This document shows, one piece after another, positions 332 to 43,551 of a stretch of 64,000 nt of DNA. A program made the position numbers and the translations under genes. The notes under the pieces were generated by a model. The model did no database searches. It worked only from the letters and a program-made list of their open reading frames with translations, and had not been told where the DNA came from. Positions within the stretch are counted from its first letter, which is position 1; each line of letters opens with the position of its first letter. The DNA comes from Eledone cirrhosa (Eukaryota): positions 218,674,001 through 218,738,000 of the forward strand of contig OZ024742.1 of the NCBI GenBank assembly GCA_964016885.1, read 5' to 3'.

Positions 332-575
332 GATGTGGATCTGTGGTTATTTTAATGGGAATTATGAATGCAGGTCAGCAGTTTGCTTTTTGAGTGTTTT
401 CTTTGTGGGTTATATAATAATAACAATAATGAAAATATTGTGTACAGTGCTCAGGTGCACTACAACTCATCAAAAGTGTATGTATAGTAGATAGGATAAT
501 GTACAAACGCCAGGAAAATGAGCAGTGCATGAGTCATGATATACACATGTGTGCATGTGTATGGAAGGGGTACAT

Positions 576-2255
576 CAGGTGTAGTTTTTTCAAATTCAAG
601 CACTGCCTTTTTTGTCAGTTTCTTGCGATAGTTGGAAGATTTATTCCGCTTTTTTCTGTTGGCATCTGATTTATGCAGTTTATATTCCCGTTCAGCGTTC
701 CGACATTCTTTCTTGGCAAGTCGGACCACTGAAGTTTCCCAAATTGCACTTTTGAGGTGGGTTTTTTTCTGCTTACGCGGCACTGATGCTGCACACGCTA
801 TCCATATTGAGTCCAGGATGCTCTGGAGTATAGTGTTAACATCTCCAGAGTTATAGAACTCATGCCAGTTTGGACGCTGTAGCTCAGTGCAGTACAAGTT
901 CCAATCTGCTTTCTTCCAATCAAAGCAAGCAGATTGGCGATGGTTCTGGTTTTTGTTGCTGCTCGCAAGAGCCAGATTGGCAATGATCATAGCATGATCA
1001 GAGTCGCCTAGAGGTTCCTCAGTAGTACAACTGATAACCACTTCAGGAGTAGTGGTGAAGATCAGGTTCAAAGTGTTGTCACCTCTTGTTGGAGAGGTGA
1101 CTACTTGTGACCAGTTTGAGTCCAGCACTAGCTCAAGGAAATCGTTTGCACTTTCTCGCCAACGAAAGGTTTCCCAATCGATCTCAGGATGATTGAAGTC
1201 ACCTGCAATAAACACATAAGTGGCTTTTTTCCTGGCAGCAGCTCTGAGGATATCGCAAAGCTGTGTGTCATGATGGTAGTTTGGGGGGCGATAAACAACA
1301 CCAAGCAGAAGTGTTGACATGGTCATAAGTATGTCACAGAAAAAAACTTCTTCTTGTGATTCGTTCAAATCAACGTAAGGAATTACCGAAAAGTTTGAAC
1401 GAACGTAGACCATCACACCACCACCACGGCGATTAATGCGGTCCTTGCGGAACAGGTTGTACCCAGTAATGTTGAAAACCCCATCACAGAGTAAGGAATG
1501 TGTCCATGTTTCCGTGACTGTGATGAAGTCAGGGTTGATGCTTCTGACATAGGAGTTAAACAGATGTATCTTGTTGCATAAACTGTGATCATTTAAGGAC
1601 AACAATTTGTACCCTGCTTGCAGTTTATGATGGTGTGTAGAGGATGGCAGGTTGTTCTGGTTTAGTTTCCCAGAGTTGTTGCAGTTTTTTTATTGCCAGT
1701 TATTGTGGGTGGAGCACACTCAGACCAGCTGGTATCTCTCTTCCACGTTTCACAAACCTCCAGATCTGCCCATCATCACGCAGACTAAAACTTTCATGTT
1801 GTGTTGAGTTCCGGTCAAAGGAAGCTGCAGCATGTAGCTTTGGACGTACATGGGGTGGTACGCCTGGGCATGTTCGGAAGGTAATCAGATTTTCACGCCC
1901 AGCTTTAACAGAGGCCAGATGATATGAAATTGCCTCAGCGGGGTCCCAAAAAGACAGCCTGATGAGTCTGGGTTTTGGACCAGGTTGACCAAGGCGGAAA
2001 GCACCCTTTGGGGGAACACAGCCTAGGTCTTTGGTTGAGCTGGCAGCAAATGCCTGAAGATCAGCCTTGTCCTCTGGTACCCCAATGGCAATTACTTCAT
2101 GAGTAGCAGATTCCGCAGTCTTCTCAGTGTGCCCAGATACGGCAAAAGGTACAGGGAGATTCTTTAGCAAAGCATTCCGATAAGACCCCTCATTGTGGGG
2201 TCCTACCCGAATGCTTGCTTTTATTCCTGTTACTTCCCTTCTTAAAGCAGAAATC

Positions 2256-3137: not shown

Positions 3138-3298
3138 GTTTGATGATACAAAGTATTGTTATGACTGTTGCCGATCTTCACAGGTGGAGCTGAAGTTATG
3201 CAGCCGTTGTAGAGCAGTTTTCTACTGCAGTAAAAAATGTAAATCCTTGGCATGGTTAGACAGACATAGGGAAGAATGTCCTAAATTTGCTGAAAAAG
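3138..3298 (+). CDS. ANKMY1: MYND zinc-finger exon of an ANKMY1-like gene (internal exon; upstream exons outside the window)
   Basis: Acceptor ctcacag| and donor |gtatag; encodes KYCYDCCRSSQVELKLCSRCRAVFYCSKKCKSLAWLDRHREEC, resembling the C-terminal MYND of ANKMY1 (CYxCxRS..V.L..C.RC....CSK.CK..AW...H...C); ends in phase 1. Confidence 0.8.
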
Positions 3299-3504
3299 GT
3301 ATAGTGTCTCTTTTTTCTGATTTTCATTTTTTTCCAGTTTCATTGTTCAATTATACTTCATGACCCTTTCTACTATGGCATTAAGCTGATAAATACTTTG
3401 TGGGGGAAATTTGGTAAACGGAAACTGTACAGAAGCCTGTTGTATATAAAGCATCAAGAGAAGTAGTAGTCAAACTAGTAATCCACATAGACAAGCGGGT
3501 AATA

Positions 3505-3760
3505 TAGAAAAGGCCTTTGACAGAGTACCTTGATAATTTATTTGGTGGTCCTTAAAGCTATGTACAGAAGAACTGTCAGTAAAGTGAGAGTAGGAAGCGA
3601 GTTCATTGAGAAATTCAAGGTACAGGCAGGAGTTCCATCAAGGTTTGGTTCTTAGCCCACTGCTGTTCATCATAGTTCTCCAGGCCATAACAGAGGAGTT
3701 TAAAACTAGCTGTCCATTGGAACTTCTCTTGCAAATGATCTGGTCCATAAAAGAACTAGA
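3505..3760 (+). mobile_element. RTE LINE RT fragment
   Basis: EKAFDRVP and HQGLVLSPLLFIIVLQAITEEFKT match the RTE at 6125-8300. Confidence 0.8.
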
Positions 3761-4967
3761 GAATAAGGACCCAGATTCTTTCCATGCAGGCCAAGCAGAA
3801 AGTGTGCAAGACCTTAGCAGAGACATCTACCTCCATGGAGATATTCTAAAGTGGTCTCAAAGAGCAACAATTACTTGTGTATATGTAAAATTAATGTATA
3901 ACCTGGAGAAAACAAACTAATTAACATGCTGGTTGGATAAAAATTTGGAATCCAGTAACAGGCACCACTCCAAAAACAGGCTTGTTGTAAATACCATGCT
4001 TTTGGTTTTGTGTCTGCAATAGAACCTCATAGAAATATTCCTTTTGTTCATCTGCCAGTTTTGATTATAGTACATATGCAGAGATAATTATTACTATTTT
4101 GTTATTCTGACTATCTCAGTTACCTTATCCATTTCCCTGCCAATAGTATGCTAACTTCACTCACCTAAAAGAATTTGTTTTTATCTTTTTTATTTGTAAG
4201 TAGTTTAGATGTTGCACCCCTCCATTTTACTTACCACTTGTACACACCACATGTGTTATATCCCACAGTTAGTGGATTAACATGTGAATATCACTAAAAT
4301 ATGTACCATATTTCAAAATAGTAAGGGTTGACATCAAAAAGGAAATTTGTCTGTAGAATGCTACTGGAATGTCTCATCAAACTAATACCAGCACGGAAAA
4401 GCAAATGCCAAAATGATGATAATGGCCAGCTATACTCTTGCTAGATAATAATAGCTTTATTATATAGAAACTTCATAATATGACAGTCCCATTTGGTGGC
4501 TATTGCAGTCTGCGTCCAGTTTGTTGAGTTTTAGAAGGGGAGCAGTCCACATTCAGTTTGCTGAATTGGGAAGATGGTTCAGAGGCTGGTTTAGCAGGAG
4601 TCATGAGTGCAGGCTGGTGTTTGCTTTAGAATGTTTGCTCAGTGAGTGTTTTGTGGACTGATTAGAGCAATAACAGTCTTATTTACATATATATATTTAC
4701 AACTACACATTAGTGTCAGTGTTATACACAGTAGTGGGGCAGTCAGATGGGAAAATCTGGTTATGTGTAAGCACCCCTTAACCAACATCAAGCAATTGCA
4801 CTCATTCTCTTCTCATCATTAAACACGTTATCTTTTTGGCTAGATATCTTTACTATATCATTTTACAGTAGTATTTACATCCTCACTATATCACTTTACA
4901 GTGTCATTGATTAATATAAGATAGAGTTATACCTCCTATGTTATCTATATTTTGTTTTTATTTGCAG

Positions 4968-4990
4968 TAAAAGACCTGAACAGAGATATT
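4968..4990 (+). CDS. ANKMY1: 23-nt microexon of the ANKMY1-like gene ((V)KDLNRDI)
   Basis: Strong acceptor tttgtttttatttgcag| and donor |gtaagt; converts phase 1 (MYND exon) to phase 0 (giant exon) with no stop. Confidence 0.7.
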
Positions 4991-5290
4991 GTAAGTTTTG
5001 TTTTTATTTTACTTCTCAACATTTAGTGAAATTATTTTTTTGAAAACCAGAAAAGGATTTTCATTGAATTTTTCTCGGAAATTATTTTGTTGTTGTTTTT
5101 TTTTTAAAATATAAATCTGTTATATAGGTTAAGGAGGTTGCTTCACAATCACAAGGTTTTTGTTTTAATCTCACTGCATGGCACATTGTGCAAATGTCTT
5201 CTACTATAGTTTCAGGTTGACCAATCCTTGTGAGTAAAATTTGGTTGTTAGAAACTGCAGAAGCCTATCATATATAGATAAAAGTATATA

Positions 5291-5807
5291 TTGTATATAC
5301 TTGTATATAAGTTGAGAAATATGTGACAAATGTGTGACAAAAAGTTGACGGTAAAATAGGTGGGAGGGGGGATCGACTCATATTTGAGATCAACATTAGG
5401 CCGATTTTCACTAACATCAAATTTTACATAAATGCAGTGCTAAAATATTTTTGCTTTGGAGGTGAGTGTTACTTTGGTTTCATTTTGGAGGTGAAATTTG
5501 TTTCTTTGTATTGTTTTTGATATGTTTTGAATAAATATGGCCTTCAAATTGGTTAGAAATTGGTAAAAACTGGAGCGGTGAAACAAAATCTATACTCTAA
5601 ACAACACTTAAAACATTTTAAATATCAAAATATTAAAACTTTACAAATATATTCTCCACTCATTAGAATTTCAAACAGTGTCATCTAAACAATGTGTTGA
5701 TTAGCTGACTTGGCTTATGAACGGAGTTTGGATTTTTGCTTATTTCACAGACATAAAAATAAGGGGTCGTCTTATATTGGGATTAGCTTATATTCGAGTA
5801 TATACAA
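5291..5807. mobile_element. Tc1/mariner-pogo-type MITE
   Basis: Imperfect TIRs TTGTATATACTTGTATATAAG / CTTATATTCGAGTATATACAA flanked by TA; non-coding interior. Confidence 0.6.
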
Positions 5808-5820
5808 TATAAATATATAT

Positions 5821-6110
5821 ATCATCATCATCAACATCACCGTTTTATGTCCGTTCTTCCATGCTAGCATGGGTTAGACGGGTTGTCCTGTTGTGGGCAG
5901 TTCTGGTCGGCTGACCATGCCTTGCTCATACAGGAACTGATTTTGGCTTGATTTCTACAGCTGGATGCCCTTCCTAACACCAACCTCATTTACAGTGAGT
6001 GCTGGGTGCTTTTTTCCGTGGCGCCTACACGTCCACTTTACAGTGTGAGCTGGGTGCTTTTTGGCATGGCACCTCCACGACCACTTTGCAGTGGGAGAGT
6101 GTGGGGGCAT
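5821..6110 (-). mobile_element. SINE-type element with RTE-like 3' tail and (GAT)n end
   Basis: Shares GGATGCCCTTCCTAACACCAACC and the (CAT)n end with many copies (9900, 10500, 37600, 57960). Confidence 0.7.
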
Positions 6111-6124
6111 ATTGTCTATATGCT

Positions 6125-8300
6125 TCAGCTTGTACCCATGGGAGGTCGGGTCTTCTGTATTACTGCGTGACGCCAGAGGTCACGGTCGTGTGTCACCGCC
6201 TTTGAGAGGTGTAATTGGGTAAGGTCGGCTTTTATCACCTCATCCCAGGTCTTCTTGGGTCTCCCCACTCCGCGGTTTCCATTGACTTCTAGCGCTCTGC
6301 ACCTTTTTATGCAGCTGTCATCCTTCATACGCATCACATGTCCATACCAATGCAACCGCCTCTCCTGCACACAGCATTTGATTCCTCTTATGCTCAGTCT
6401 CTCTCTCAATTCATTTATGCTTTGCCGTTCGCGTATATTACTATTACACATCCATCGGAGCATGCAGGCTTCATTTCTTTCTAATCTATGTAAGTCTTCC
6501 ACCTTCAGTGCCCAGGTCTCACTACCATGTAACATTGCTGTTCGTATACACGTATCATACAGTCTGCCTTTCATTTTGAGGGAGAAGCCTTTTGCAGCTA
6601 GCAGTGGCAGTAGTTCCCTGAACTTCTTCCATCCCGTTCTTACCCTAGTTATTGTACTTTCTGAACACCCACCTCCGCTGCTAATTCGGTCACCTAGGTA
6701 GCAGAAGCTGCCTACTGTTTCTACAGAGCCCTCCCAGAGATTGGTGGTACTTGTTTCCTGTGGCTGTTTGCTGCTTGCTGTCTCAGCACAGCTGCTACAT
6801 GTGAAGCCTACATTCTTAATTAAGCTTCCTGAGATCTCGCTACATCTCTTGTGTACCCATTGCTTGCATTTGGGGCAGAGAATGGAGTTCCTACCTACAC
6901 CTTTCCTACATACTGAGCAAGGCCATTTCCCTGAGGGGATCTGGGTTCTGTTTTCTAGTCTACTTACAAGGACCTTAGTCTTTGTCAGGTTGACTTTGAG
7001 ACCCTTTCTTTCTAGTCCCTGCTCCCAAGTTTGGAATTTCTTCTCTAGTTCTACCATAGATTCAGCTATAAGTGCGAGGTCATCTGCATACAGGAGTTCC
7101 CATGAGCATCCAGTCTTAAACTCCTCCATTATTGCCTGCAGGACTATGATGAACAGGAGAGGGCTAAGAATAGAGCCCTGGTGGACACCAACCTGAACGC
7201 TAAATTCCTCGCTATACTCATTGCTAATCCTAACTTTGCTGACTGCTCCTCTATACATGGCTTGTACAGCTTTCACAAGCCATTCATCTACTCCTAGTTT
7301 TCTAAGAGCCCACCAGATTATAGCACGTGGAACTCTGTCAAAGGCTTTCTCGAGATCGACGAATGCCAGGTAGAGTGGCTTACTTTTAGCTAGGTACTTT
7401 TCCTGTAACTGCCTCACAAGGAAGAGGGCATCAGTGGTGCCTCTTCCTGGTACAAACCCAAATTGCATCTCATCTGGTTTCACCCGGTCCCTAATCAACT
7501 GTGCTATAACTCTTTCTGTTACTTTCATGACCTGGTCCATCAGCTTTATACCTCTATAGTTTCCTCTATCTAGTGCATCACCTTTACCTAAGCTATGTTG
7601 GGAGGTACATTCCTCACTAGGGAAGGCATTTGTGTTTACGACCGTCCATCCATCACGTCCTCTGATGAGGATAAAATCTATCTGACTAGAATGCTCCCCT
7701 GATCTATAGGTGATCAGGTGGTTGTCGGGTTTTTTGAAGTTTGTGTTACATATCGACATGTCATTGGCGTTGCAGAATTCTAGAAGTCTGAATCCTTCTT
7801 TATTTCTTGTGCCAACCCCATGGCCTCCATGGACTCTTTTGAAGCCGTCACAGTGTTTACCTACATGTCCGTTAAAATCTCCTGCGATGATTAGGAAGTC
7901 ATTGTCGTTTGTTAGAGCAGTAGTGTGCATTAGGGACTCGTAAAACTTATCCTTCAGTTCGTCTGGCAACCCCGATTGTGGTGCGTAAGCTGATATTATT
8001 GTGGTTTTTGTTTTATTCAGGACTAGTCTGAGTGTAATGATTCTTGCATTTACCTTGTACACTGAGATTACTTTATCTACCCACTTGTCAGCTAGTAGAA
8101 TACCTACACCACCCATCCCATCGTCATTTCCCACCCAGAAAAATTTGTAGCACTGACTTTTTCCTACAAGGACTCTAGCAGACTCTCCTCTCCATCTAGT
8201 CTCTTGCACACAGTCGACATCAATTTCCTTTCGCTCTAGTATCTCTACGATTTCTCCTGCTCTTCCTTTGATTGTGCTTACATTGATGGTACCAACTCAG
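6125..8300 (-). mobile_element. RTE-clade LINE: APE + RT + PHD finger, in-frame internal deletion
   Basis: ORF 694 aa with QETRW, GDFNGHVG, DLEKAFD, HQGSILSP, YADD and a C4HC3 finger; the frame continues upstream to L*VGTINV (about 8300); lies antisense in the ANKMY1-like intron. Confidence 0.93.
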
Positions 8301-8598
8301 AGTTTTGGGCATTTGTCAACATTCGTGGAGAAGGGTCGATTTTTGCAGGGTGTGTGTATGTGCTTCCTGTCTCTGAATTGAAGCTTCACATGTGTGCTTG
8401 GTAGCTCACGGATTCATATTCATTTTCATTTATTAATTCAGGGTTACTCCATTTATTCTCAGCTCATCCATACATAACGGTAGGAAAATTCAGGGCTAGA
8501 AGAACAGTGGTGGTGGTAATAATGGCAGGTTGTGTTGGGCTGGGACGGGGGAGTAGAGAGGTAGGTAGTAGTAGAAATGGCAGGGTTGGTAGTGGGTG

Positions 8599-8627
<29 letters not shown>
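8599..8627. repeat. poly-G tract
   Basis: Uninterrupted G run in the purine-rich region upstream of the RTE ORF. Confidence 0.9.
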
Positions 8628-8629
<2 letters not shown>

Positions 8630-9035
8630 TGCTGAAGTTTGATTGGTCGAATAGGCTATGGTGGTGTGGAAGGGAAATTGTGAGGTAGGTAGCCAAATCA
8701 TGGCCTGTAGCATCTCAGGGCAAAATAGACGGATAGGAGTAGATGACTTTGAAGAGAAAGCGAACTGATAAATAAAACAACACTAATAATAGTGTAAGAG
8801 AGAGGAGGCGAGTAGATGACTTCGTAGAGAGGCAGCATGGTAGAGAAAATGAGGGTAAAAAATAAATGTGTTGTGGAAGCTAGTGAAGTGATAAATACAG
8901 TGAAGTGATAAATATTTTATCTGATGAGAGCATACCAAAGTTTTTTGGTACCCTTGAAATATATATAATAAAATAAATATGGTTTTATAAATATAGTTTT
9001 CCATTTATTAATATCTCTGATATATATATATATAT

Positions 9036-9283
9036 ATTAGAAAATATATAGCTTTCACCGTATTTTTGACTAAAGGAATTTTAGCTTGATAACGGGGTTT
9101 AGAACCCTCAGTTAAATGGAAAAAGATGAGTATTGATGTACATGGGAGTCGAACCCACATCTGTGGTTATCGCGAACCCACATCTGTGGTCATCTTTTTC
9201 CATTTAACTGAGGGTTCTAAACCCCGTTATCAAGCTAAAATTCCTTTAGTCAAAAATACGGTGAAAGCTATATATTTTCTAAT
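9036..9283. repeat. Perfect 94-bp inverted repeat with 60-nt loop
   Basis: Arms 9036-9129 and 9190-9283 are reverse complements; loop carries the direct repeat CGAACCCACATCTGTGGT twice; (TA)n nearby on both sides. Confidence 0.92.
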
Positions 9284-9313
9284 TTCAAACTCACTCACTG
9301 TTTCAAAACATAC

Positions 9314-9375
<62 letters not shown>

Positions 9376-10989
9376 CAAATGTAAGTGTACAAACCAATCA
9401 AGAAGGAGAGATAGGAGATTAAGTGAAAGTTAGCAAGAGAATCATATACCATGCAAAAAGTGTATAGGTAGAGCGTTAATATAAAAATTATTCTTAAAGA
9501 ATGCAGAACCAAATTCTTGAACAAATATATTTATTGGTTTACAATTGTTTCAGGCCACAATTCAGTCCGTAAAAATAAAATTTATCAATTATAGAATGGT
9601 AAGAATAGATGATATTAAAACTGAACTATGAACTGACTTCATCTTCAGAATCAAAAAGAAAATAAACATAAAATTTAAAAATACATGTCACTGATGGTGG
9701 GGACTACAAAAAGATGAAAGACAAACCATACCACTTATCAATCGAAGGACTGAAACAGAAGAATAATACATTCTAAATTCAAATAAGCCAGTTATGCATT
9801 TAAGTAATGGAGGATTGACATAACAATTGTAAACCAATAAATATATTATATATTTTGTTGGTACTGTATTCTCTAACAATAATTGTTATATATATCATAT
9901 ATCATCATCATCATCATCGTTTAACGTCCGTGTTCCATGCTTGCATGGGTTTGGACGGGAGTTTTCCCACTTGAGGCAAGAGTGGTTGTCTTGCTCGCAT
10001 AGGACTGTCTGGCGGGTTTTCTACAGTTGGATGCCCTTCCTAACACCAACCACATTTACAGTGTGGGGCTGGGAGGTTTTTACCGTGTTGCCTACACGGC
10101 CACATTACAGCGTGGACTGTCTGGTAGGTTTTCTACAGCTGGATGCCCTTCCTAACACCAACCACATTTACAGTGTGGGACTGGGACGTTTTTACCGTGT
10201 TGCTTACACGGTCACATTACAGCGTGGACTGTGTGTTTTTTTTCGTGACACCTACACGATCTCATTTGTTTCGGCCTGGATTTTGTGGCACCAACATAAC
10301 TTTACATTGAAAGGGGCGGTGTGGATGGGGTATATATATATATATATATAAATATATATATATATGTGTTCAGACCGGGTGATGTGTCTCAGACCGGGTG
10401 ATGTGTTGTTTCCTTGAGCAAGACACTTTATTTCACATTGCTCCAGTTTACTCAGCTGTAGAAATGAGATGATAGGGACTGGGATCCATATCATTCAGTG
10501 GTCGTGGAGGTGCCACGGCAAAAAAAAGCACCCAGCACTCACTGTAAATGAGGTTGGTGTTAGGAAGGGCATCCAGCTGTAGAAATCAAGCCAGAATCAG
10601 TTCCCGTCCCACTCTTGCAAGCAGGGAAAAGCGGACGTAAAAATGATGATAATGATGATGATGATATTTGTTTTGCAAGTTTTTTTATTTGAAATCGTGT
10701 GTTGAAACAAATATTGTTATATTTGGGGGAGGGTCACATTGTTATAATATTGCCAGAAATACATAATAAAACACACTCACTGTGTGGTTGTAATTACAAT
10801 ACAACAAAGGAAACATAATAATATCGCTGATGATGTCACAGGTGTGTGATGAAAGAACTCTGAGAGACTATATATATATATATTGATATCTATATTTTTA
10901 ACTGTTGGTCAATCAATGATAAACATTGATTGCCAACTAAATTAGCTATAGCGATATAAAATATATGGAGGCGAAAACAGATTAATTTA

Positions 10990-11292
10990 TCCAATCGAGT
11001 CCAGTCTGATCCAGTCCAATATGATCTGATCTTACCCAACCTATTTTGATCCAATCTGGATCATTTTGTTCCAATCCAAGCTCATCTGATTTCGCCCAAT
11101 CTAGTCTGAAGCAATCAAATCTGTTCCAGTTTGATCCAATCTGACCCAATCTAGTCCAGAGCAATCCGATGCAGTCTGATCTCGATCTGATCTGATCTGG
11201 TCTGATCCAATCCAATCTGATCTGGTTTGGTTTGATCCGATCCAGTCTGATCCAATCCAGTCTGATCCAGGCCTGACCCGATCTGGTCTGAC
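10990..11292. repeat. Degenerate pentamer microsatellite (GATCC/GATCT/CCAAT)
   Basis: 5-bp periodic gatcc/aatct/gtctg units. Confidence 0.8.
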
Positions 11293-11865
11293 CATGTAAG
11301 GTGGTTGACATCAAGAAGCGTGTCCAGCAATAGAAACCATGCCACATATGGAACATAATGAGCAAGACCAATTGCTCCAACCCATCTGGCCTGAGGCCGT
11401 GATTAGCCGTCCAACCCATGCTAGCATGGAAAACAGACATTAAATGATGATGATAAAGATGGTAATACTAATGATTTTTCAATCATTAATATCAATGTTT
11501 TTTGGCACTAAACATTAGTAATATCAAGCTTATATAATTAGAAGGGCCTTAAAATCTTATTTGTTAAATTATCTTAACTTTTGTTAATGCGATGTAAATG
11601 AAATGTGATTTTCTTTTCCTGGGACTTTTTTTCCTAGCTACAATTTATGTCCACTACCATAAATACTTGAATTAACAAACCTGTTTTAGACATTTTCTGC
11701 TAAACTATTAGAAGTTGAATATAATAGTTCAATATTTAGTTATGTTATGGAATACAGCTTGGCACAAACATATATATACTGAAGCTTATATTTGCATTCA
11801 AACTCATGTCCTTACAAACTCATGCAAACATTAATTTCAAATCTTAATTTTTCTTATTTTTCTAG

Positions 11866-14800
11866 ATATATGGTAAAGCTGAAGAGTCTAATGGTTATAG
11901 TGATGGTAAAAATGGTAAAATGTATAACATTGGTAGAAAGGATAAAACTGGTAGAAGTGATGAAACTAGTAGAAGTGATGAAACTGCTAGAAGTGATGAA
12001 ACTCGTAGAATTGATAGCTATGATGAATCTGATGAATCTGATGACTATGATAGACTTGATGACACCGATAGAATGGGGAAAACTAGTAGAAGTGGCCAAA
12101 TTTATAAGGGTCGTAAAGCTGATAAAACCGCTAGATTTTTTGAAAATGGTAGAATTGATGAAACTGGTAGAGATTATGATAGACCTGATAGAGATTATGG
12201 TAGAGATTATGATAGACCTGATAGAGATTATGGTAGAGATTATGGTAGACCTGATAGAGATTATGATAGACCTGATAGAGATTATGGTAGAGATTATGGT
12301 AGACCTGATAGAGATTATGGTAGAGATTATGGTAGACCTGATAGAACTGGTAGAATGGATAAAACCGTTAGAACTGATAGAACTGGTAGAATTTATGAAA
12401 ATGGTAGACCTGATAGAACTGGTAGAATGGATAAAACTGTTAGAAGTGATAGAACTGGTAGAATTTATGAAAATCGTAAAATTTATGAAAATGATAGACC
12501 TGATAGAATTGGTAGAATGGATAAAACTGGTAGAGCAGATAAAACAAGTAGACATGATATAACTGGCAGAACTGATAAAAGTGGTAGAACTGATGCAACG
12601 GGTAGAATGGATATAACTGGTAGAACTGATAAAAGTGGTAGAACTGATACAATGGGTAGAATGGATATAACTGGTAGAACTGATAAAAGTGATAGGCCTG
12701 ATACAATGGGTAGAATGGATATAACTGGTAGAACTGATAAAAGTGGTAGACCTGATATAACTGGCAGAACTGATAAAAGTGGTAGAACTGATACAACTGG
12801 TAGAATGGATATAACTGGTAGAACAGATAAAAGTGATAGAACTGACACAACTGGTAGAATGGATATAACTGGTAGAACTGATAAAAGTGGTAGAACTGAT
12901 ACAACTAGTAGAATGGATACAGCTGGTAGAACTGATAAAGGTGGTAGAACTGATACAACTGGTAGAATGGATATAACTGGTAGAACTGATAAAATTGGGA
13001 GAATGGATAAAACTGGTAGAGCAGATATAACTGGTAGAACTGATACAACTGGTAAACCTGATATAACTGGCAGAACTGATAAAAGTGGTAGAACTGATAC
13101 AACTGGTAGATCAGATATAACTGGTAGAACTGATAAAAGTGGTAGAACTGACACAACTGGTAGATCAGATATAACTGATAGAACTGATAAAAGTGGTAGA
13201 ACTGACACAACTGGTAGATCAGATATAACTGGTAGAACTGATAAAAGTGGTAGAATTGACACAACTGGTAGAAGTGATAAAAGTGGTAGAACTGATACAA
13301 CTAGTAGAATGGATACAGCTGGTAGAATTGATAAAAGTGGTAGAACTGATACAACTGGTAGAACTGATAAAAGTGGTAGAACTGATACAACTGGTAGAAT
13401 GGATATAACTCGTAGAACTGATAAAATTGGGACAATGGATAAAACTGGTAGAGCAGATATAACTGGTAGAACTGATATAACTGATAAAATTGATAAAAGT
13501 GGTAGAATGGATAAAACTGGTAGAGCAGATAAAACTGGGAGAATGGATAAAACTGGTAGAGCAGATATAACTGATATAAATGGTAGAATTGATAAAACTG
13601 GTAAAACTGATAAAACTTGGAGAATGGATAAGGCTGGAAGAACTGATGTAAGTGGTAGAATGGATAAAAGTGGGAGAATGGATAAAACTGGGAGAATGGA
13701 TATACCTGAAAGGATGGACAAAAGTGGGAGAATGGATCCTATGGAAAGAATGGATAAAACTGGGAGAATGGATAGAAGTGGTAGAATGGATAGAATGGAT
13801 AAAAGCGGGAAAATGGATCCTATGGAAAGAATGGATAAAACTGGGGCAATGGATAGAAGGGATAGAATGGATAGAATGGATAAAAGCGGGAAAATGGATC
13901 CTATGGAAAGAATGGATAAAACTGGGGCAATGGATAGAAGGGATAGAATGGATAGAATGGATAAAAGCGGGAAAATGGATCCTATGGAAAGAATGGATAA
14001 AACTGGGGCAATGGATAGAAGGGATAGAATGGATAAAAGCGGGAAAATGGATCCCATGGAAAGAATGGATAAAACTGGGGCAATGGATAGAAGGGATAGA
14101 ATGGATAGAATGGATAAAAGCGGGAAAATGGATCCTATGGAAAGAATGGATAAAACTGGGGCAATGGATAGAAGGGATAGAATGGATAGAATGGATAAAA
14201 GCGGGAAAATGGATCCTATGGAAAGAATGGATAAAACTGGGGCAATGGATAGAAGGGATAGAATGGATAGAATGGATAAAAGCGGGAAAATGGATCCTAT
14301 GGAAAGAATGGATAAAACTGGGGCAATGGATAGAAGGGATAGAATGGATAGAATGGATAAAAGCGGGAAAATGGATCCTATGGAAAGAATGGATAAAACT
14401 GGGGCAATGGATAGAAGGGATAGAATGGATAGAATGGATAAAAGCGGGAAAATGGATCCTATGGAAAGAATGGATAAAACTGGGGGAAGGGATAGAATGG
14501 ATAGAATGGATAAAAGCGGGAAAATGGATCCTATGGAAAGAATGGATAAAACTGGGGGAAGGGATAGAATGGATAGAATGGATAGAATGGATAAAAGCGG
14601 GAGAATGGATAAATTTGGGAGAATGGATAAAAGCGGGAAAATGGATCCTATGGAAAGAATGGATAAAACTGGGGGAAGGGATAGAAGGGATAGAATGGAT
14701 AGAATGGATAAAAGCGGGAAAATGGATCCTATGGAAAGAATGGATAAAACTGGGGGAAGGGATAGAATGGATAGAATGGATAGAATGGATAAAAGCGGGA

Positions 14801-15993
14801 GAATGGATAAATTTGGGAGAATGGATAAAAGCGGGAAAATGGATCCTATGGAAAGAATGGATAAAACTGGGGCAATGGATAGAAGGGATAGAATGGATAG
14901 AATGGATAAAAGCGGGAAAATGGATCCTATGGAAAGAATGGATAAAACTGGGGCAATGGATAGAAGGGATAGAATGGATAGAATGGATAAAAGCGGGAAA
15001 ATGGATCCTATGGAAAGAATGGATAAAACTGGGGGAAGGGATAGAAGGGATAGAATGGATAGAATGGATAAAAGCGGGAAAATGGATCCTATGGAAAGAA
15101 TGGATAAAACTGGGGGAAGGGATAGAATGGATAGAATGGATAGAATGGATAAAAGCGGGAAAATGGATCCTATGGAAAGAATGGATAAAACTGGGGGAAG
15201 GGATAGAATGGATAGAATGGATAGAATGGATAAAAGCGGGAGAATGGATAAATTTGGGAGAATGGATAAAAGCGGGAAAATGGATCCTATGGAAAGAATG
15301 GATAAAACTGGGGGAATGGATAGAAGGGGTAGAATGGATGTAATGGATAAAATGGATAAAAGTGGGAGAATGGATAAATTTGGGAGAATGGATAAAAGCG
15401 GAAAAATGAATCTTATGGAAAGAATGGATAAAATTGGAAGAATGGATAGAACTGGGAGAATGGATAAATTGGAGACAATGGATAAAACTAGGAGAATGGA
15501 TAAAAGTGGTATAATGGATAAAACTGGGAGAATGGATAAAACTGGGAGAATGGATAAATTTGGGACAATGGATAAAACTGGGAGAATGGACAAATTTGGG
15601 ACAATGGATAAAACTGGGAGAATGAATAAAACTGGGAGAATCGATAAATTTGGAAGAGTGGATAAAACTGGGAGAATGGATAAAAGTTGGAGAATGGATA
15701 GAAGTGGGAGAATGGATAGAAGTGGGAGAATGGATAGAAGTGGGAGAATGGATATACCTGGGAGAATGGATATGCCTGGGAGAGTTAGTCAATCTTCTAC
15801 ATCTATGAAACTAGGACAAATTGGGAATCTTGGAATATTGGGTCAAGTCATGAAAAATGGTAAAAGGATGGCCGAATCTGATAAATTGAAAATCCTATTG
15901 AGCAAATTTCTATTCGCAACATTTAAACCTGATAGATATAAATTGGTACCAGATACTGAATATCTGTATGGAACCAACTACAGCCATAATTAA
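11866..15993 (+). CDS. ANKMY1: Giant terminal exon (1,375 aa plus stop) of the ANKMY1-like gene: M/D/R/K/G/T tandem-repeat polyampholyte with a unique C-terminal tail
   Basis: Acceptor ttttcttatttttctag| at 11865; phase 0 (IYGKAEESNGYSDGKNGK-M11920) is in frame with ORF 11920..15993; ends in non-repetitive VSQSSTSMKLG...YLYGTNYSHN*. Confidence 0.72.
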   Translation: MYGKAEESNGYSDGKNGKMYNIGRKDKTGRSDETSRSDETARSDETRRIDSYDESDESDDYDRLDDTDRMGKTSRSGQIYKGRKADKTARFFENGRIDETGRDYDRPDRDYGRDYDRPDRDYGRDYGRPDRDYDRPDRDYGRDYGRPDRDYGRDYGRPDRTGRMDKTVRTDRTGRIYENGRPDRTGRMDKTVRSDRTGRIYENRKIYENDRPDRIGRMDKTGRADKTSRHDITGRTDKSGRTDATGRMDITGRTDKSGRTDTMGRMDITGRTDKSDRPDTMGRMDITGRTDKSGRPDITGRTDKSGRTDTTGRMDITGRTDKSDRTDTTGRMDITGRTDKSGRTDTTSRMDTAGRTDKGGRTDTTGRMDITGRTDKIGRMDKTGRADITGRTDTTGKPDITGRTDKSGRTDTTGRSDITGRTDKSGRTDTTGRSDITDRTDKSGRTDTTGRSDITGRTDKSGRIDTTGRSDKSGRTDTTSRMDTAGRIDKSGRTDTTGRTDKSGRTDTTGRMDITRRTDKIGTMDKTGRADITGRTDITDKIDKSGRMDKTGRADKTGRMDKTGRADITDINGRIDKTGKTDKTWRMDKAGRTDVSGRMDKSGRMDKTGRMDIPERMDKSGRMDPMERMDKTGRMDRSGRMDRMDKSGKMDPMERMDKTGAMDRRDRMDRMDKSGKMDPMERMDKTGAMDRRDRMDRMDKSGKMDPMERMDKTGAMDRRDRMDKSGKMDPMERMDKTGAMDRRDRMDRMDKSGKMDPMERMDKTGAMDRRDRMDRMDKSGKMDPMERMDKTGAMDRRDRMDRMDKSGKMDPMERMDKTGAMDRRDRMDRMDKSGKMDPMERMDKTGAMDRRDRMDRMDKSGKMDPMERMDKTGGRDRMDRMDKSGKMDPMERMDKTGGRDRMDRMDRMDKSGRMDKFGRMDKSGKMDPMERMDKTGGRDRRDRMDRMDKSGKMDPMERMDKTGGRDRMDRMDRMDKSGRMDKFGRMDKSGKMDPMERMDKTGAMDRRDRMDRMDKSGKMDPMERMDKTGAMDRRDRMDRMDKSGKMDPMERMDKTGGRDRRDRMDRMDKSGKMDPMERMDKTGGRDRMDRMDRMDKSGKMDPMERMDKTGGRDRMDRMDRMDKSGRMDKFGRMDKSGKMDPMERMDKTGGMDRRGRMDVMDKMDKSGRMDKFGRMDKSGKMNLMERMDKIGRMDRTGRMDKLETMDKTRRMDKSGIMDKTGRMDKTGRMDKFGTMDKTGRMDKFGTMDKTGRMNKTGRIDKFGRVDKTGRMDKSWRMDRSGRMDRSGRMDRSGRMDIPGRMDMPGRVSQSSTSMKLGQIGNLGILGQVMKNGKRMAESDKLKILLSKFLFATFKPDRYKLVPDTEYLYGTNYSHN
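13795..15310 (+). repeat. Homogeneous ~81-bp (27-aa) tandem repeat inside the giant exon
   Basis: Unit MDKSGKMDPMERMDKTGAMDRRDRMDR with variants, built from a 9-bp ATGGATAGA-like subunit. Confidence 0.92.
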
Positions 15994-16590: not shown

Positions 16591-16928
16591 TAATGTATAA
16601 AATCAAAGGATTGTCTGAATAGCGGCAAGAATTTGAAATTTGTATTTATGACAAATTCTCTTTGTACAAATAAATAAATAAATAAATAAATAAACAATAA
16701 GTAATAAATATATAAGTAATAAATAAATAAACAAATAAATAAATAAATAATAAATGATAAATAACAAATAAATGAATAAATAATAAATAAATAAAAATTT
16801 AATGAATAAGTAATAAATAAATAATAAATAATAAATAACAAATGAACAATAAATAATGAATAAATAAATAATAAATAAATAAATAATATGTAAATAAATA
16901 AATAATAAATAAGTAATAAATAAATAAT

Positions 16929-22987: not shown

Positions 22988-23058
22988 TATATATATATAA
23001 ATGAAGAGAGAAAGAGGGAGAGACAGAGAAAGTAAGAAATGTGTGTGTTTGGTACACG

Positions 23059-23103
<45 letters not shown>

Positions 23104-25920
23104 TTAGTAAGGTTCTAGCTGCGGATAGGAATAGGAAGGAAAGGGAGCTAATAGATAGAGTAGAAGAGGCAATTAGAAGCGGCGACGTGGCCAGAGTGCT
23201 AGCGTCGAGAACGGCTTTGAGCCAGTTTTTCGACGCGAAGCACGAAGGTTGCGTTGTCCGAAGTAAAATACGTGCTCTAGGGAACGAGGGGACCAAAGCT
23301 GTTAGCTGGGCCCGCGTGACAGAGGCCAACAGTGGAACTAAATCCACCATCCGGTCTTTGCGAGACCTGGATGGACGGGCGATTCTTGAGCCTAAGCAGA
23401 TGTGTGAGGCCTTTCAAAGGCACTTTGCCCGACTGTTCGGGAGGGGCGGGGAGCCGGTTGGGAACGTGGACTTCGGTCCATACCTCGACGGCCTGCCGCG
23501 CCTCTCGGACAGGGAGGCGAAGTCCTGCGAGGAGCCGATTTCGGCCGCTGAGATAGAGGACGTGCTGAGCCAATGCGGCAAACGCAAATCCCCGGGTCTC
23601 GATGGTCTTCCTTACGAATTATATCTAGCTATGCCGGACTTGTTCCCCGATCTCCTCGAGGCGGTCTACTGCAACTGGCAACAGAACGGGAGAATTCCCT
23701 GTACTGTGACCAAGGGCGTAGTCACGCTAGTGAGGAAGGACGAGAACAAGGGGGACGAAATAAGTAACTTCAGGCCCATAACTCTGCTAAATACAGAGTT
23801 ACAGATTTTGGCCAAGGTGCTAGCAAAGAGGTTGGCGCTTGTCGTGGGCAACCTGGTGGGAGATGCGCAGACATGCGCTATCCCGTCCAGGTCCATCCAT
23901 GACAACCTCCACCTCATGCGATACATCATAGAGAGGGTTGGGAACGAACCCGGCTTTGGTGGGGCTCTGATCAACTTGGATCAATCTAAGGCGTTCGATA
24001 GGGTCGACCATGGTTACCTGGATGCGGTGCTAGCGGCGGCAGGCTTCGGACCCGTTTTCAGGGGCTGGATCACTGCTATGCACAGCAGCCGCATCTGCTC
24101 TAGGGTCAAGGTGAACGGCTACCTCTCGGAGCCGTTCAAAATCGCGCGGTCCATCCGACAAGGGTGCCCTCTCTCCTCCCTTCTGTATGTGTTGACTCTC
24201 GAGCCACTACTGCGGAAGTTGGAGTTGTTGCAGGGCATCCCTTTGGAACCGGGATTGCGGAAAGCGGTGTCGGCCTACGCCGATGACGTGACAGTAATGG
24301 TCTCGACGGCCTCCGAAATCGAGGCGGTCGGCACCTTACTGGAGGAGTACGAAAAGTTCACAGGGGCTAAGCTGAACCGGGACAAGTCGATCGGTTTGCA
24401 ACTCGGCACGTGGAGGGGCAGACCGATGCCCTCCGATAGCGTCGTCGGACGCTGGACGGAGGGCCCGGTGAAGTTGCTCGGGGTCTGGTTCGGACCGGAC
24501 CTCCAGGTGGAGAAAAACTGGGCGGAGGTTACGAACAGGGTGTTTGCACTGACCCAGAAGTGGGCCAGTTGCAAACTATCCCTGAAAGGTCGGGCGGAGG
24601 TGGCGAACACCTACATAGCGTCCGTCATCTACTACCGCCTGACCGTAGTACCCTGCCCAAGGGAAACCCTCACCAAGATGGAGCGCGCGCTCTTCCAATT
24701 CCTTTGGAAGAGGCGGGCTCCTATGGTGAGGAGATCCATCTGCTGTCAACACCCTTCGAAAGGAGGGTTGGGGATGCCGTGGCTAATGATGCGTAAACAC
24801 GCATTAAGGCTACGGCACCTCTACGTATTCCTCACCGGACAACCGGTGTGGGCCTCGTTTGTGAGACGAACCTTTCCCAGACTCGTCTCACTCACCGAGC
24901 TGCAATCCTGGGTCAAGCAGAGACCGAGAAAACTGGGCGCCTGGCACACTGAGTGTGCCCAGGCGCTCACCGCCCTCTGGCAGGCGGATCCGGTTATCAG
25001 TGGAGACTCCACCGCAACATTCTATAGAGGGCTGGTACGCAGCAGGTGCGACGACGCCCTCGGAGAAGCCCTAGACATGGAGGAGGACGAACTGGCCAGC
25101 CTGTTCGGTAGGACATTCAGCCCGGGACCTATGGACAACTTCCAGAAGTCCCTGGCCTGGCAGTGCTACCGAGGAGCTTTACCCGTTCGAGAAAGGCTCT
25201 ACAGACACGGGCGCCCGGGTAGGGACCCCGCCAAAAAGATCTGTCCCAGATGCGTGAGCGACGAGGAAACCGTTGCACACGCATTAGTACACTGCTCGGG
25301 CGTAGCCGATCTGTGGGGCTATGTCGAACAACTGCTGTCAAGGGTGGGACCGATCCGGTTGACCACCGAGTCTATTGTAATGATCAAGCCGCCTCCCCCC
25401 TTCAAAGATGAAGCAGAGGCGGTGTTTCTGTGCGTAATAGCCATGGCGAAAGAGGTTGTATGGTGGACGCGTCTGAAAGGACTGAGGTCGGGCACCTTTC
25501 TCTCTGGCCAACAACTGGTCCGTTTCTTCCGATATCATTTCGGAAGAAGGATCAGGATGGAGAGAGAGGTGCTGCACCCCAGCCGTTTCTATGAAAGATG
25601 GGTGAAAGTGGCGAGAATGGCCCGTGTGAATGGGCCTTCACTCTACATCAGACTATAGGTGAGGAAGATGAAAGACCAAGGGAGCACCCCTTCTCTGTGC
25701 TCCTGAGGAGAAGGGTTGCACACTTTTTTCGGGGGTGTGTGCGACCCCCCAAGGCGCCTCCTCTCTATTGAGGATTTTGTTAAAAATTTTATTTTTTGTT
25801 ATATCTTATTTTATTTTTATATTTTGTTATTGCCTCCTCCTTATTGAGGACGCCTTTTTGTGTAAACTCCCCCCTTTGTACTTGTCCCACTTTTGATGCC
25901 CTAGTGGCAAATAAAAGAAA
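23104..25920 (+). mobile_element. Tx1-like (L1 clade) retrotransposon copy 1: 5'-truncated, open RT plus C-terminal zinc finger
   Basis: Uninterrupted frame to 25658 with SPGLDG, NFRPITLLN, DQSKAFDRV, RQGCPLS, YADD and CPRC..ETVAHALVHC; 3' UTR ending AATAAAAGAAA; (TATC)n on both sides. Confidence 0.95.
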
Positions 25921-25922
25921 TA

Positions 25923-25964
<42 letters not shown>

Positions 25965-27000
25965 CTGGGCACCGTTTGTGAGACAGGCTTCCCCACAGAT
26001 CGTCTCGCTGACGGAGCTGCAGTCCTGGGCGAAGAAAAGACCGAAAACGATGGGCGCCTGGCACATTGAATGCGCTCAGGCGCTCACAGTCCTCTGGCAA
26101 GCGGGCGCAGCAATCAGTGGAGACTCCACTTCGACATTCTATAGAGGGATTGTACGTTACAAGGGCGACGACGTGCTCGGAGAGACTCTGGGCGTCGAAG
26201 ACGATGAGCTCACCAGTCTGTTTGGTAGGACTTTCCGCCCGGGACCTATGGACAACTTCCAGAGGTCCCTGGCCTGGCAGTGCTACCGAGGAGCTCTACC
26301 GGTTAGTGACAAGATCTACGGGCACGGACGTGCCGGCAGGGATCCTTCCAAGAGGACGTGTCCAAGATGCGCGCAGGACATTGAAACAGTCCTGCACGCA
26401 ATTGTATACTGCCCGGGCGTAACCGACCTGTGGAACTATGCAGAACAACTGCTGTCGCGTATTGGACAAATCCAGTTGACTGCCGAGTCCATAGTAAGGA
26501 TCAAACCGCCAGCCTCTTTCAAAAACGAAAGAGAGGCGGTTTTCCTCTGTACGGTGGCTATGGTGAAAGAAGTTATATGGTGGACGAGGTTGAGAGGACT
26601 GAGAACAGATGCCTTTCTCTCCGGACAACAATTGATTCCCTTCTTTAAGTATCACTTTAGAAGGAGAATGACAGCGGAGAGAGAGGCACTGCAATCCAGT
26701 AAATTTACTGAAAGGTGGGTGAATGAAGCGAAAATGGCCCGAGTGATTGGGCCTTCTCTGTTTATAAGCCTGTAGGTTGAGGAAGAGAGCAAAAGGAAGA
26801 AAGGAGCACTTGCACAACACGCTCCTGGAGTTGAGAGTTGTTCTATCGACGGGGTATTAAACAACACATTTGTGGCGCCTCCCCCCTATTGGGGATTTCG
26901 ATTGTTTGTTTTTATATTTTTTACACGACTGTATGTAAAATCCCCGGCATGTCTTTGTATTGTCCCCTTTTCTTGTGCGCCCTTGTGGCTAATAAAGAAA
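25965..27000 (+). mobile_element. Tx1-like copy 2 (diverged subfamily, 5'-truncated)
   Basis: ORF 25978..26775 is paralogous to the C-terminus of copy 1; ends AATAAAGAAA followed by (TATC)n. Confidence 0.93.
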
Positions 27001-27010
27001 TATATATATC

Positions 27011-27041
<31 letters not shown>

Positions 27042-27042
27042 C

Positions 27043-27461
27043 CTCTGGCCAACAACTGGTCCGTTTCTTCCGATATCATTTCGGAAGAAGGATCAGGATG
27101 GAGAGAGAGGTGCTGCACCCCAGCCGTTTCTATGAAAGATGGGTGAAAGTGGCGAGAATGGCCCGTGTGAATGGGCCTTCACTCTACATCAGACTATAGG
27201 TGAGGAAGATGAAAGACCAAGGGAGCACCCCTTCTCTGTGCTCCTGAGGAGAAGGGTTGCACACTTTTTTCGGGGGTGTGTGCGACCCCCCAAGGCGCCT
27301 CCTCTCTATTGAGGATTTTGTTAAAAATTTTATTTTTTGTTATATCTTATTTTATTTTTATATTTTGTTATTGCCTCCTCCTTATTGAGGACGCCTTTTT
27401 GTGTAAACTCCCCCCTTTGTACTTGTCCCACTTTTGATGCCCTAGTGGCAAATAAAAGAAA
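27043..27461 (+). mobile_element. Tx1-like copy 3 (short 3' piece)
   Basis: Reads identical by eye to 25502-25920; flanked by (TATC)n. Confidence 0.93.
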
Positions 27462-27491
27462 TATATCTATTTATCTATCTATCTATCTATC

Positions 27492-30400
27492 CTTTTTCTC
27501 TATCTATCTCTGAAATAGAGGAAGTTGTGTGCCAGTCACGCTGGTAAGTTTTTGTCTTTTATTTATAAAAAACAAAAATGATTGTTTTAAAAAAAATATA
27601 CCAGTATATAGATTGACCCTCTGACTAAATTGTCAGTGGGTGGGTCATATAAAAATTTATAACAACTTGTTTTAACAATGAATGTTAACATTAAAGCGCT
27701 TCCCGCCAAAAATGGAAATGGGAGCATTGAAATGAATGTCACTATGGCAACAGGTAGTGACCGAGATAAATCATACCAAAACAAAAGTATGGAAACACAT
27801 ACGGCACAAAAAAATATTCAACAAGAGAAAAACACAACTTCACAATCACAAATCAAGCAATTGAGAACTACAAAAACAATAACAACGACAACAATGACAA
27901 CAACAACAGCAACAACAGTAATGACAACAACACCAACAAGAACAACTCCACAAACAAGTAAAAAAAAGGTTTCATTGCACAAACTGTCCAAAAAACAACT
28001 ATATACACAGATTGACATCTCTAATGCCGGAGAATTGCTAAGAGATGCCAAGCAATATATAACTTTTGGGGAGGTGGCGCTTTTAGCACACTTCTCCCCA
28101 AGAATTGCGTAGAGACACTGTCCTGAAAACTATAGTTTTTAGGACAATCTCAAATACCACCAGAAAACCAGCTCAATTAACTCAAAACGAAATTGAGCTG
28201 GTTCTAAGAAACTCCATGAAGGACATTACTTTCATACAGAAGGGAACACTCTTCGGGAGTTTATCAATAATAATGAAAGACCACTTGACGGCACAGAAAT
28301 ATTCTGTGTCGCCAATTGTGTCCCCCCTCTACACATTTTTCCCCACATATATGGGAAAAAGGACCCCAAAAATAAAAGTAACAAATATCACACCAAATGT
28401 AAGCATCTGGTGGATATTAGCTGGTTTCATCAATTTTGATGAAGATACAGTAATTTCGGTAGGAAAGTCCTCCAGGGGCATATTCAACGGTACAAGCTTA
28501 GAAGTTCTGGTCCAAATGAGACCAGAACGGGTAGCTAGAATACCACAACGTGTGCCTCTGGATGGAAATTCCTACATTAAACATTTCTGTTGAGGGTAGG
28601 CGGCCTTCATCATACCAGTGTTTAAGCTGTGGTCACCTGAGGGCTTCCTCTCCTCAATTAACTGCATAAAAAAAGGCACTACTGCCGACACCCAACACAA
28701 CAACACAACCACCACCACCACAACAACAACAACAAGACACAAAAATAACAAAAACAAACCAAACTGCAAACACAGTCCCACCCAACCCCTCTCCACCTAA
28801 ACAACTCCAAAAACACCCACAAGCACAACAGCTCCCCAAAACATACCCCTCCCCAATCAAACAGACACCACAACGAACGAAGCCCCTTCGTCATCACTTA
28901 GTGATGATGAGGGAGAACCCCTCCGCTCCAAAAAAAAGAAAAAAAGACATAACACGAACAAAAAGGCAACAAACACACAACCACCAACACAAACAACACA
29001 AACATTACAAACAAAAATCCCCCCTCCCGAAAACAAAACAATGACAACACTCCAAACACAAATACCCACAACAAAACGAAAACACACACAAGAACAACAG
29101 ACAAAAACTAACACAACACAACAAAAATATTATATATACATAAACACTGACAATAAAACCTTGATGGAGGTCATCTCCAAAAACCCTTCCGTGGAAACCG
29201 AAGGAAAATATTTTACCAAATGTAAAGGCAAACCTAATTTAAGGATGATTAGGGTCCCTACGGACACATATAAGTCCTTAAAGGAAAACTTTGCTGAGGA
29301 CGTGGGGAATATGTGTGTTAAACCAACGAACCGCGTCCTCTTGAAACGTTTCCCCACCCCACCCCAGACACCGCCACTCTTCCAGACACCCCCTCCCCAC
29401 CAAACATCTCTGTTCCCACCCCGCCAGGAACCACCACCCTACCAAACAACCACTCCAACACGCCCATGGACATTGTGCAGCCTGGTCCCCAGGAGACAAA
29501 GAGGTGAGTGATTTCTTTTCCTCTTCTTTTAACTTTTCAGCACCAGCATGGCCAATATAAGAGTTGGATGTGTGAATGTACGTGGCCTGGGGTTGCCCTG
29601 GAAACAGGGGAACTCTTAAACGACCTCAGGTCCCACAGTATGGATGTAGTAGCCATTTGCGAGTCCAGGATCCACAGCGAGCGACAGCTGGCCCCCATCT
29701 TCGAGATCTATGCATCTCTCTGTCAGCCGGGAGGTGGGGGCGGGTTTGCCGTTTTGCTGCGGAAACACCTGGACTCGTAACACAGACGATACATCTGGAC
29801 CCGGAGGGTCGACTGGTGATCCTAGACGTTGACGGTAGTGAAGGTGGAGCCTTCAGGCTGGTGGCCGCATATGCTCCATCCGGGACACCGAGGCCAGACT
29901 TCTTCAAACGTCTAGAGACTTTTCTGGGAACGTCCCGCTCCTTGCTTTTAGTGGGGGACTGGAATGGAATCCTAGATGCACGTTGGGCCTATGTGGGAGC
30001 ATGTCCCGATAAAGGGGGGTGTAACAGCCTCAAACAGTTAATCGGCCGATTTGACCTGGCCGATAGATATCGACTAGATTTTCCGACTGTGCAACTGTGG
30101 ATGTGGAATAATCTCAGCGGAACATCTAGATCGTACCTAGATAGGGTTCTAGTTAGAAATAAAGATAGGGACATGTTAAGCAGTCCACAAAAGTTCATGG
30201 TTGCCTATTCAGATCACAAACTAGTGACCTGCATGGTCAACCTTGATAGAACCCATAGACAAGGACCCGGCTACTGGAAGCTGAACTTGTCGTTACCGAT
30301 ATGCAAAGCCTACAGTAGACAGATTAGCACTTTAATTAAACAGCACTTGACAGGGGCCATTGTCAACAACAGATGGTGGTACTCTCTCAAGAGGGCAGTT

Positions 30401-43238: not shown

Positions 43239-43422
43239 TCAGTCGCCTTTCTTTGAAATTAACTTGTCAATGAGAGTTTTCAATTCAGATTTATAACTAT
43301 TATAACATAGAACACCATTCTCATCAAAGTATTTTGCCACAGAATGTTTTAATGTTTCTGACCTGGAAGAACCTTTCACACCATTTTCATAATCAATCAT
43401 AAGTTGGTATACATCATCGTAT
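43239..43422 (-). CDS. SPCS2: SPCS2 exon 5 (terminal)
   Basis: Acceptor ttttcccttacag|; (K)YDDVYQL..KHSVAKYFDENGVL..* resembles the SPC25 C-terminus. Confidence 0.93.
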
Positions 43423-43551
43423 CTGTAAGGGAAAACAGGAATCAGTGAGAAATGAGACAGTAAACTATAGAGAATAAAGTAACCTAAGTAACAACATAAA
43501 ACAAATAATTGAAGAACATCTTTGGTGAGACACACTCTATTTTGACTTTAA

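Follow-up and report, generated by a model that had tools for sequence, protein, structure and literature searches.

Judged from its sequence, the 64,000-nucleotide (nt) window analysed here, from Eledone cirrhosa (GenBank assembly GCA_964016885.1, contig OZ024742.1, positions 218,674,001 to 218,738,000, forward strand), holds the 3' end of ANKMY1, a gene of a cilium and sperm-tail protein family, in what is an extreme variant of a known protein. In the gene model that we regard as probable, some 1,300 residues of charged repeat, encoded by the last exon, lie between the MYND zinc finger and a conserved C-terminal motif, NYS-x-x, and this exon would be reached from the MYND exon through a probably constitutive exon of 23 nt. 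Positions are those of the window unless stated otherwise, and upstream scans used 200 kb fetched beyond it.

The last exon and its conserved end

The three-part join of MYND exon, 23-nt exon and open reading frame (ORF) stays open for 1,436 residues and ends in GTNYSHN before the stop. A sequence-only reading of the window had proposed this arrangement, with the MYND exon leaving in phase 1 and a phase-0 acceptor at 11865/11866 opening onto a 4.1-kb ORF. Its coordinates, signals and phases are all as claimed, and the status of the ORF as a coding last exon is borne out by the 11.3-bit acceptor at codon 1 and by the conserved end motif. This acceptor ranks first among the 505 AGs in 3330-11870 and also among the 333 between 11866 and the stop, where the next scores 2.7.

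A profile search found 173 homologues, of which 120 were listed and checked; 106 of these fit the MYND pattern, the search alignment being poor. NYS-x-x ends 89 of the 106 MYND-bearing homologues, always with exactly two residues after the S, in taxa from snails and clams to fish and reptiles. It is present in 19 of the 24 named molluscs, and comparison of mollusc C-termini supports the conserved NYS-x-N-like end that had been anticipated. The 17 MYND-bearing homologues without it include partial models. Three homologues end in NYSHN, an end shared by Bulinus, Biomphalaria and Lymnaea, and N, Y and S are invariant in an alignment of 81 rows chosen for carrying the motif. Among 20,169 stop-ended frames in 264 kb, this ORF alone ends in NYS-x-x. 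Because the end is conserved in homologues and unique among nearby frames, the ORF very likely represents the genuine last exon of ANKMY1. No mention of the motif was found in the partial texts of the ANKMY1 literature that were available. Strictly terminal and present from molluscs to reptiles, it provides a quick test for correct 3' gene models of ANKMY1.

Between the MYND finger and this end, the linker spans 29-213 amino acids (aa) in the 89 motif-bearing homologues (median 77), and the longest seen in any homologue is 322 aa (P0074); here it is 1,389 aa. Since homologues already have a variable linker in this place, the earlier idea of an added tail is abandoned: the linker grew, and the repeat is an expansion inside it. 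A phase-1 intron just after MYND also looks shared among homologues. In 30 of 47 short homologue gene calls a G stands five residues past the last Cys, and many of those 30 then run into intron-like sequence. After the stop of the ORF there are ATTAAA signals at 16009 and 16315, and an AAAT microsatellite (16669-16927) is full of AATAAA.

Identity of the gene

The MYND exon encodes a single Pfam zf-MYND finger of the CxxCxRS type near the C-terminus (E 4e-9), with all ligands intact, and is a single match in the 3.0-Gb genome. Homologue tblastn placed colinear exons from ~103 kb to ~56 kb before the window. Joined, twelve of these give an open frame of 859 residues, which a thirteenth extends by ~40, for a total of ~900 aa without a stop. 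They carry Pfam MORN repeats (E 9e-10 and 6.5e-4), and ankyrin repeats were also called, colinear with homologues. The order MORN, ankyrin, MYND across the 13 upstream exons and the MYND exon is the ANKMY1 plan, the homologues that bear names are ANKMY1, and the identity first proposed for the gene is upheld. The same order, including a DxRIA-type helix before MYND, is found in mouse ANKMY1 (PDB 9IJJ chain 5B) and in molluscs such as Bulinus truncatus (KAH9509404.1), and molluscan ANKMY1 shares both the NYS-x-x end and the apparent phase-1 intron just after MYND. In contrast to its homologues, the gene described here has a linker composed of tandem repeats, a divergent core and a pre-MYND segment that was not found.

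Best summed tblastn scores were those of molluscan homologues. The core is very divergent, with a best identity of 41%, and in a quick tree of 34 proteins, in which its placement is unresolved, it has the longest branch (3.4). No cephalopod-named or other close homologue was present among the 120 homologues listed of the 173, and a protein search with the MYND exon against targets of 94-2000 aa gave one candidate and nothing significant. The MYND exon, the 23-nt exon and the beginning of the last exon are each covered by short-read contigs (runs X1-X3, one genomic sample) that differ in no more than three letters; these contigs run through the exon-intron borders, with no splice joints among the rows shown. 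Left of 2979, contigs of X1 and X2 depart from the window sequence, which may reflect structural variation between haplotypes or individuals.

Repeat architecture and composition

The ORF is composed of 18.5% D, 16.9% R, 12.2% M, 11.7% G, 10.0% T and 9.7% K, with 1.7% Tyr, 0.3% Gln, 138 Met-Asp dipeptides and a net charge of +76. Its charged fraction is 0.43-0.55 by zone, with a slight positive excess. Of the Met-rich, charged tail described earlier, the charge and the overall Met content stand, but Met abounds in the 3' half only, at 21% across aa 611-1160 as against 1-5% in the part that precedes it. Four repeat zones make up most of the exon (Table 1), and 65-70 unique residues lie between the last 18-nt zone and the ORF end.

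In each of the four zones the top 10 repeat periods are multiples of 3. Across the exon the forward frames contain 0 stops in the ORF frame and 28 and 356 in the other two. A drift simulation gave ~10 expected stops against 0 seen (zone P 0.12, 0.73, 0.003 and 0.10), a result that is overstated in that copies share history. Mismatches are not concentrated at third codon positions in three of the four zones, and since third positions are not the most variable there, the constraint on residue identity seems weak.

When the genome was searched with the tail, unrelated 18-nt arrays came up on C2, C4, C5, C7 and C15. Because such arrays carry long open frames, ORF length by itself is no evidence of coding; the case for this ORF is that it is anchored at both ends, by a strong acceptor and a conserved end motif, without a break in 4.1 kb. 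With the same splice and homology anchoring and unbroken frame, the exon does not fit the picture of a non-coding 18-nt minisatellite. One array at C4:180.35-180.40 Mb (L034, L037) extends for ~45 kb, reads DRTSCI and has a 12,035-codon frame and a few frame shifts, with no gene context seen. Other 18-nt purine-rich arrays (L025, L028, L031, L032 and L033, reading TGRVEV, DGQIDS, TPGRVD, YTGKMD and KRGRVN) resemble the ANKMY1 unit.

Pfam returned nothing for the whole ORF and a LED repeat below cut-off for residues in 12502-13701. A protein search with the tail against targets of 756-2407 aa gave three weak compositional matches among 8,000 scored, proteins above 2,407 aa lying outside the search. 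For the Met-rich zone the best ESM Atlas match reached 0.86, and such matches serve as leads only.

Table 1. Features of the ANKMY1 3' end and neighbouring elements in the window
Feature	Position	Strand	Details
MYND zinc-finger exon	3138..3298	+	161 nt, phase 2 in/phase 1 out, CAG acceptor, AAG/GTATAG donor; homologue tblastn
Putative 23-nt connector exon, phase 1 to 0	4968..4990	+	TTTGCAG acceptor, ATT/GTAAGT donor; VKDLNRDI with upstream base
3' splice site of last exon	11836..11865	+	TTCTAG ending at 11865, 11.3 bits
Last coding exon	11866..15993	+	1,375 codons plus stop
Oldest degenerate 18-nt-derived zone, RDYGR/RDYDRPD units	11866..12330	+	23-27% from zone-B consensus
Six-residue repeat [K/I/T]-[T/S]-G-R-[T/M]-D, 18/54-nt period	12330..13700	+	69 units, 65 of 68 spacings exactly 6 codons
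Young 81-nt (27-aa) Met-rich array	13714..15473	+	~22 copies, 87% matches
18-nt GRMDKT-type zone	15350..15785	+	repeat analysis
Non-repetitive C-terminal segment	15786..15975	+	holds weak phase-1 AG 15813-15814 (rival acceptor, 2.3 bits)
Conserved ANKMY1 end motif NYSHN and stop	15976..15993	+	homologue comparison
Intronic antisense long interspersed nuclear element (LINE; endonuclease, reverse transcriptase (RT), PHD)	6125..8296	-	ORF and Pfam
LINE endonuclease fragment	460-1689	-	ORF and Pfam
Several RT and zf-RVT LINE copies	23001-32700		ORF and Pfam
SPC25/SPCS2 signal peptidase gene, last exon, facing ANKMY1	43239-43547	-	Pfam E 8e-8

The probable 23-nt connector exon

A phase-1 donor and a phase-0 acceptor need either a connector of 3n+2 length or another acceptor. 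Splice sites were scored with a small home-made matrix from 13 known sites of the gene plus generic frequencies, on which the acceptor of the 23-nt exon reaches 10.3 bits (known acceptors of the gene, 8.1-13.7). On criteria chosen post hoc, the pairing of an acceptor scoring 10 bits or more with a GTAAGT no further than 51 nt away occurs once in 528 kb on both strands, at 4968-4990. Four phase 1-to-0 connector candidates passed thresholds, three of which share the acceptor at 8442 and the fourth of which is 4968-4990. The latter is single-copy DNA, and a DNA contig spans it with one differing letter, at 4920. Given that the ORF is the last exon, we have good confidence that 4968-4990 is a real connector, and the exon is probably always included rather than used as a switch.

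Some homologue models also vary at this junction. Oyster models P0099, P0173 and P0185 (vs P0176) and Anolis P0219 vs P0220 differ by small inserts there, with the motif kept, and small optional-looking inserts right after MYND are present in bivalve and lizard models (P0099, P0173, P0185, P0169, P0172, P0198, P0220). These protein models suggest that the post-MYND intron often gains small exons.

Weighing of the gene model

Several points weigh against the model. We infer the splicing of the three pieces from DNA signals. Of the two "strong splice sites" ascribed to the 23-nt exon only the acceptor stands: the donor, at 4.3 bits, is below all 13 known donors (5.2-10.4), although all three known donors without G at -1 are likewise GTAAGT. 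Comparable or better phase 1-to-0 scores number 0 in 44 kb of known introns, 1 in the 58-kb gap between ankyrin block and MYND exon, 2 in 96 kb upstream and 4 in 48 kb downstream, and because they turn up in gap, upstream and downstream DNA a chance origin of the 4968-4990 score is possible. Elsewhere in the genome, 18-nt arrays for which no gene context was seen also hold long open frames (the longest of 12,035 codons), and the length of the 81-nt array here rests on one assembly. The mouse chain (PDB 9IJJ chain 5B) aligned only to residue 887 of 906, and mammals may do without the end motif. In an AlphaFold model of a clam homologue the motif is not folded onto the core, and its role is predicted only. 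Finally, no convincing exon linking the ankyrin block to MYND was detected in the 58-kb gap by hidden Markov model and splice scan, which leaves ~45-90 homologue residues unaccounted for. The thirteenth exon (L006:4199-4331) may end in phase 0 or 1, and the MYND exon enters in phase 2; a GC-AG donor, a 10-nt or other small exon or an assembly omission could close this gap. A GC donor at L006:4199-4331 would join the MYND exon directly, deleting the 45-90-residue segment.

The sequence-only reading had suggested an on/off switch, in which skipping of the 23-nt exon would yield a compact protein ending nine residues past the last MYND cysteine and inclusion the giant form, by tissue. We consider this unlikely. 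On skipping, the frame ends in FAEKDIW with a stop at 11874; this stop lies in the last exon, where junction-based decay would not apply. The weak donor of the exon, the small inserts by which oyster and Anolis homologues vary at the same junction, and mouse ANKMY1, a working central-apparatus protein with only ~20 residues beyond MYND, all speak for a switch. An intronic polyadenylation isoform of human ANKMY1, given in the part of the source available (10.1101/2021.04.05.438492), was counted on the same side. Skipping, however, loses the end motif that most homologues keep, and the inserts of the named homologues retain it. The exon is shorter than 30 nt and has a weak donor, as do neural (eMIC/Srrm4) microexons, but eMIC-regulated microexons are described, in the part of PMC8797185 available, as having 3' sites of very low strength together with extended AG exclusion zones and UGC motifs. 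At 4968-4990 the acceptor is strong, no TGC or TCTC lies at -45..-6 of it, the upstream AG-free zone is 39 nt (shorter than in 9 of the 13 known acceptors of the gene) and the length shifts the frame, and by this comparison the exon does not look like an eMIC-regulated microexon. A frame-shifting small exon has the appearance of any constitutive 3n+2 exon. Nothing tested here supports regulation, and the sequence features point to a small constitutive exon.

That the repeat is intronic, with the MYND donor spliced straight to the phase-1 AG before 15815, is decidedly improbable. The join is in frame, its 65-aa linker is ordinary and near the typical length, and similar 18-nt arrays occur elsewhere without gene context. 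Its acceptor scores 2.3 bits, under the leave-one-out range of known acceptors (3.8-10.7) and at a level that ~3 in 10 AGs reach, and the 11.3-bit acceptor at codon 1 of a 4.1-kb frame open into the motif would go unexplained. Moreover, four of the other 18-nt arrays inspected show frame shifts or stops, unlike this one.

We give very little weight to a route to the ORF other than the 23-nt exon, whether by a repeat-derived exon at 8442-8560 or by the in-frame AAG at 11876-11878. The former outscores the 23-nt exon (18.0 vs 14.5 bits), but it sits within a repeat that is young and high-copy (1,056 candidates in the genome, 91-96% identical), and it therefore cannot be an old connector; this phase 1-to-0 candidate (8442..8560, forward strand) was rejected. 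The AAG is in phase 1, yet as an acceptor (11879) it scores -1.3, 13 nt behind a strong TAG.

It is hardly credible that the 3' part is decoupled and decaying, with MYND and last exon cut off from the ankyrin block and the repeat growing under lost constraint, since against the missing linking exon and the very long branch stand 13 upstream exons that join without a stop, intact MYND ligands and end motif, a thirteenth-exon donor without variant in the short-read contigs, and the ways named above in which the link could be closed.

Comparison with known systems

Coding minisatellites in disordered regions of mucin or neurofilament type likewise have units in multiples of three, layered waves, low complexity and weak residue constraint. 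Mucin and neurofilament repeats are Ser/Thr/Pro or KSP, whereas here they alternate R/K and D, are Met-rich and belong to an axonemal protein. The tail resembles cephalopod reflectins in its Met-Asp dipeptides, richness in Arg, >35% charged residues and scarcity of Leu, Ile and Val, a likeness of composition only. Reflectins are described, in the part of PMC11931252 available, as Tyr-rich proteins with an MDX5 motif in which X is S, Y, Q, W, H or R. The MD dipeptides of the tail, by contrast, are spaced 3 or 6 residues apart, and its unit goes back to the local KTGRTD 18-mer; by composition and spacing the MDX5 pattern with Tyr/Gln/Trp-rich spacers is not present, and the tail does not fit that description of a reflectin. 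At the level of search listings, literature on microexons and coding minisatellites in cephalopods and on sperm axonemes in octopus gave nothing on this ANKMY1 gene, and no paper was found that pairs "ankyrin repeat and MYND" with "octopus".

Proposed origin and role of the repeat

An 18-nt purine-rich minisatellite would have arisen in the variable MYND-to-motif linker and grown in waves, first as degenerate 18-mers, then as 18/54-mers and last as the young 81-mer array. As the sequence shows, the growth was always in multiples of three, so the frame into the end motif was kept. Selection likely acts on the frame and the end motif and little on repeat residues. The product, of ~2,350-2,430 aa, is predicted to contain a 159-kDa polyampholyte spacer, disordered and slightly positive, that separates a folded core, likely on the C1 central-pair microtubule, from a short C-terminal motif. 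In the AlphaFold model of the clam homologue the core is confident and the linker low, with a predicted local distance difference test score (pLDDT) <50 over most of 1045-1106; because neither linker nor motif is confident there, the motif likely binds another protein as its partner.

Most probably, the expansion is slack that a fast-evolving ciliary or sperm gene tolerates, and not a new module. In the parts of the sources available, mouse ANKMY1 is a C1 projection protein near the radial spokes, whose heads are negatively charged (PMC12297659), and it is bound by CCDC180 near the RS8 interface (PMC12297659, 10.1101/2024.08.06.606614). A mechanical or electrostatic role of the spacer facing these spoke heads is possible. 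A more elaborate version, in which a 160-kDa net-positive polyampholyte brush on the C1 projection faces the radial-spoke heads and the 23-nt exon toggles between giant protein in sperm and a compact, mammal-like one in other cilia, so as to tune the mechanics of the flagellum, strikes us as very improbable. If expressed, the gene would encode a central-apparatus protein whose linker, beside the radial spokes, is 6 to 48 times as long as those of motif-bearing homologues. It would be a natural test of how much disordered charged mass is tolerated at the C1/radial-spoke interface, and would clearly exemplify how a minisatellite type spread across the genome can be captured by a coding exon.

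Neighbouring features

LINE sequences and the facing SPC25/SPCS2 gene are listed in Table 1. A 24-nt tandem repeat at 43553-43692 adjoins the SPC25/SPCS2 exon.

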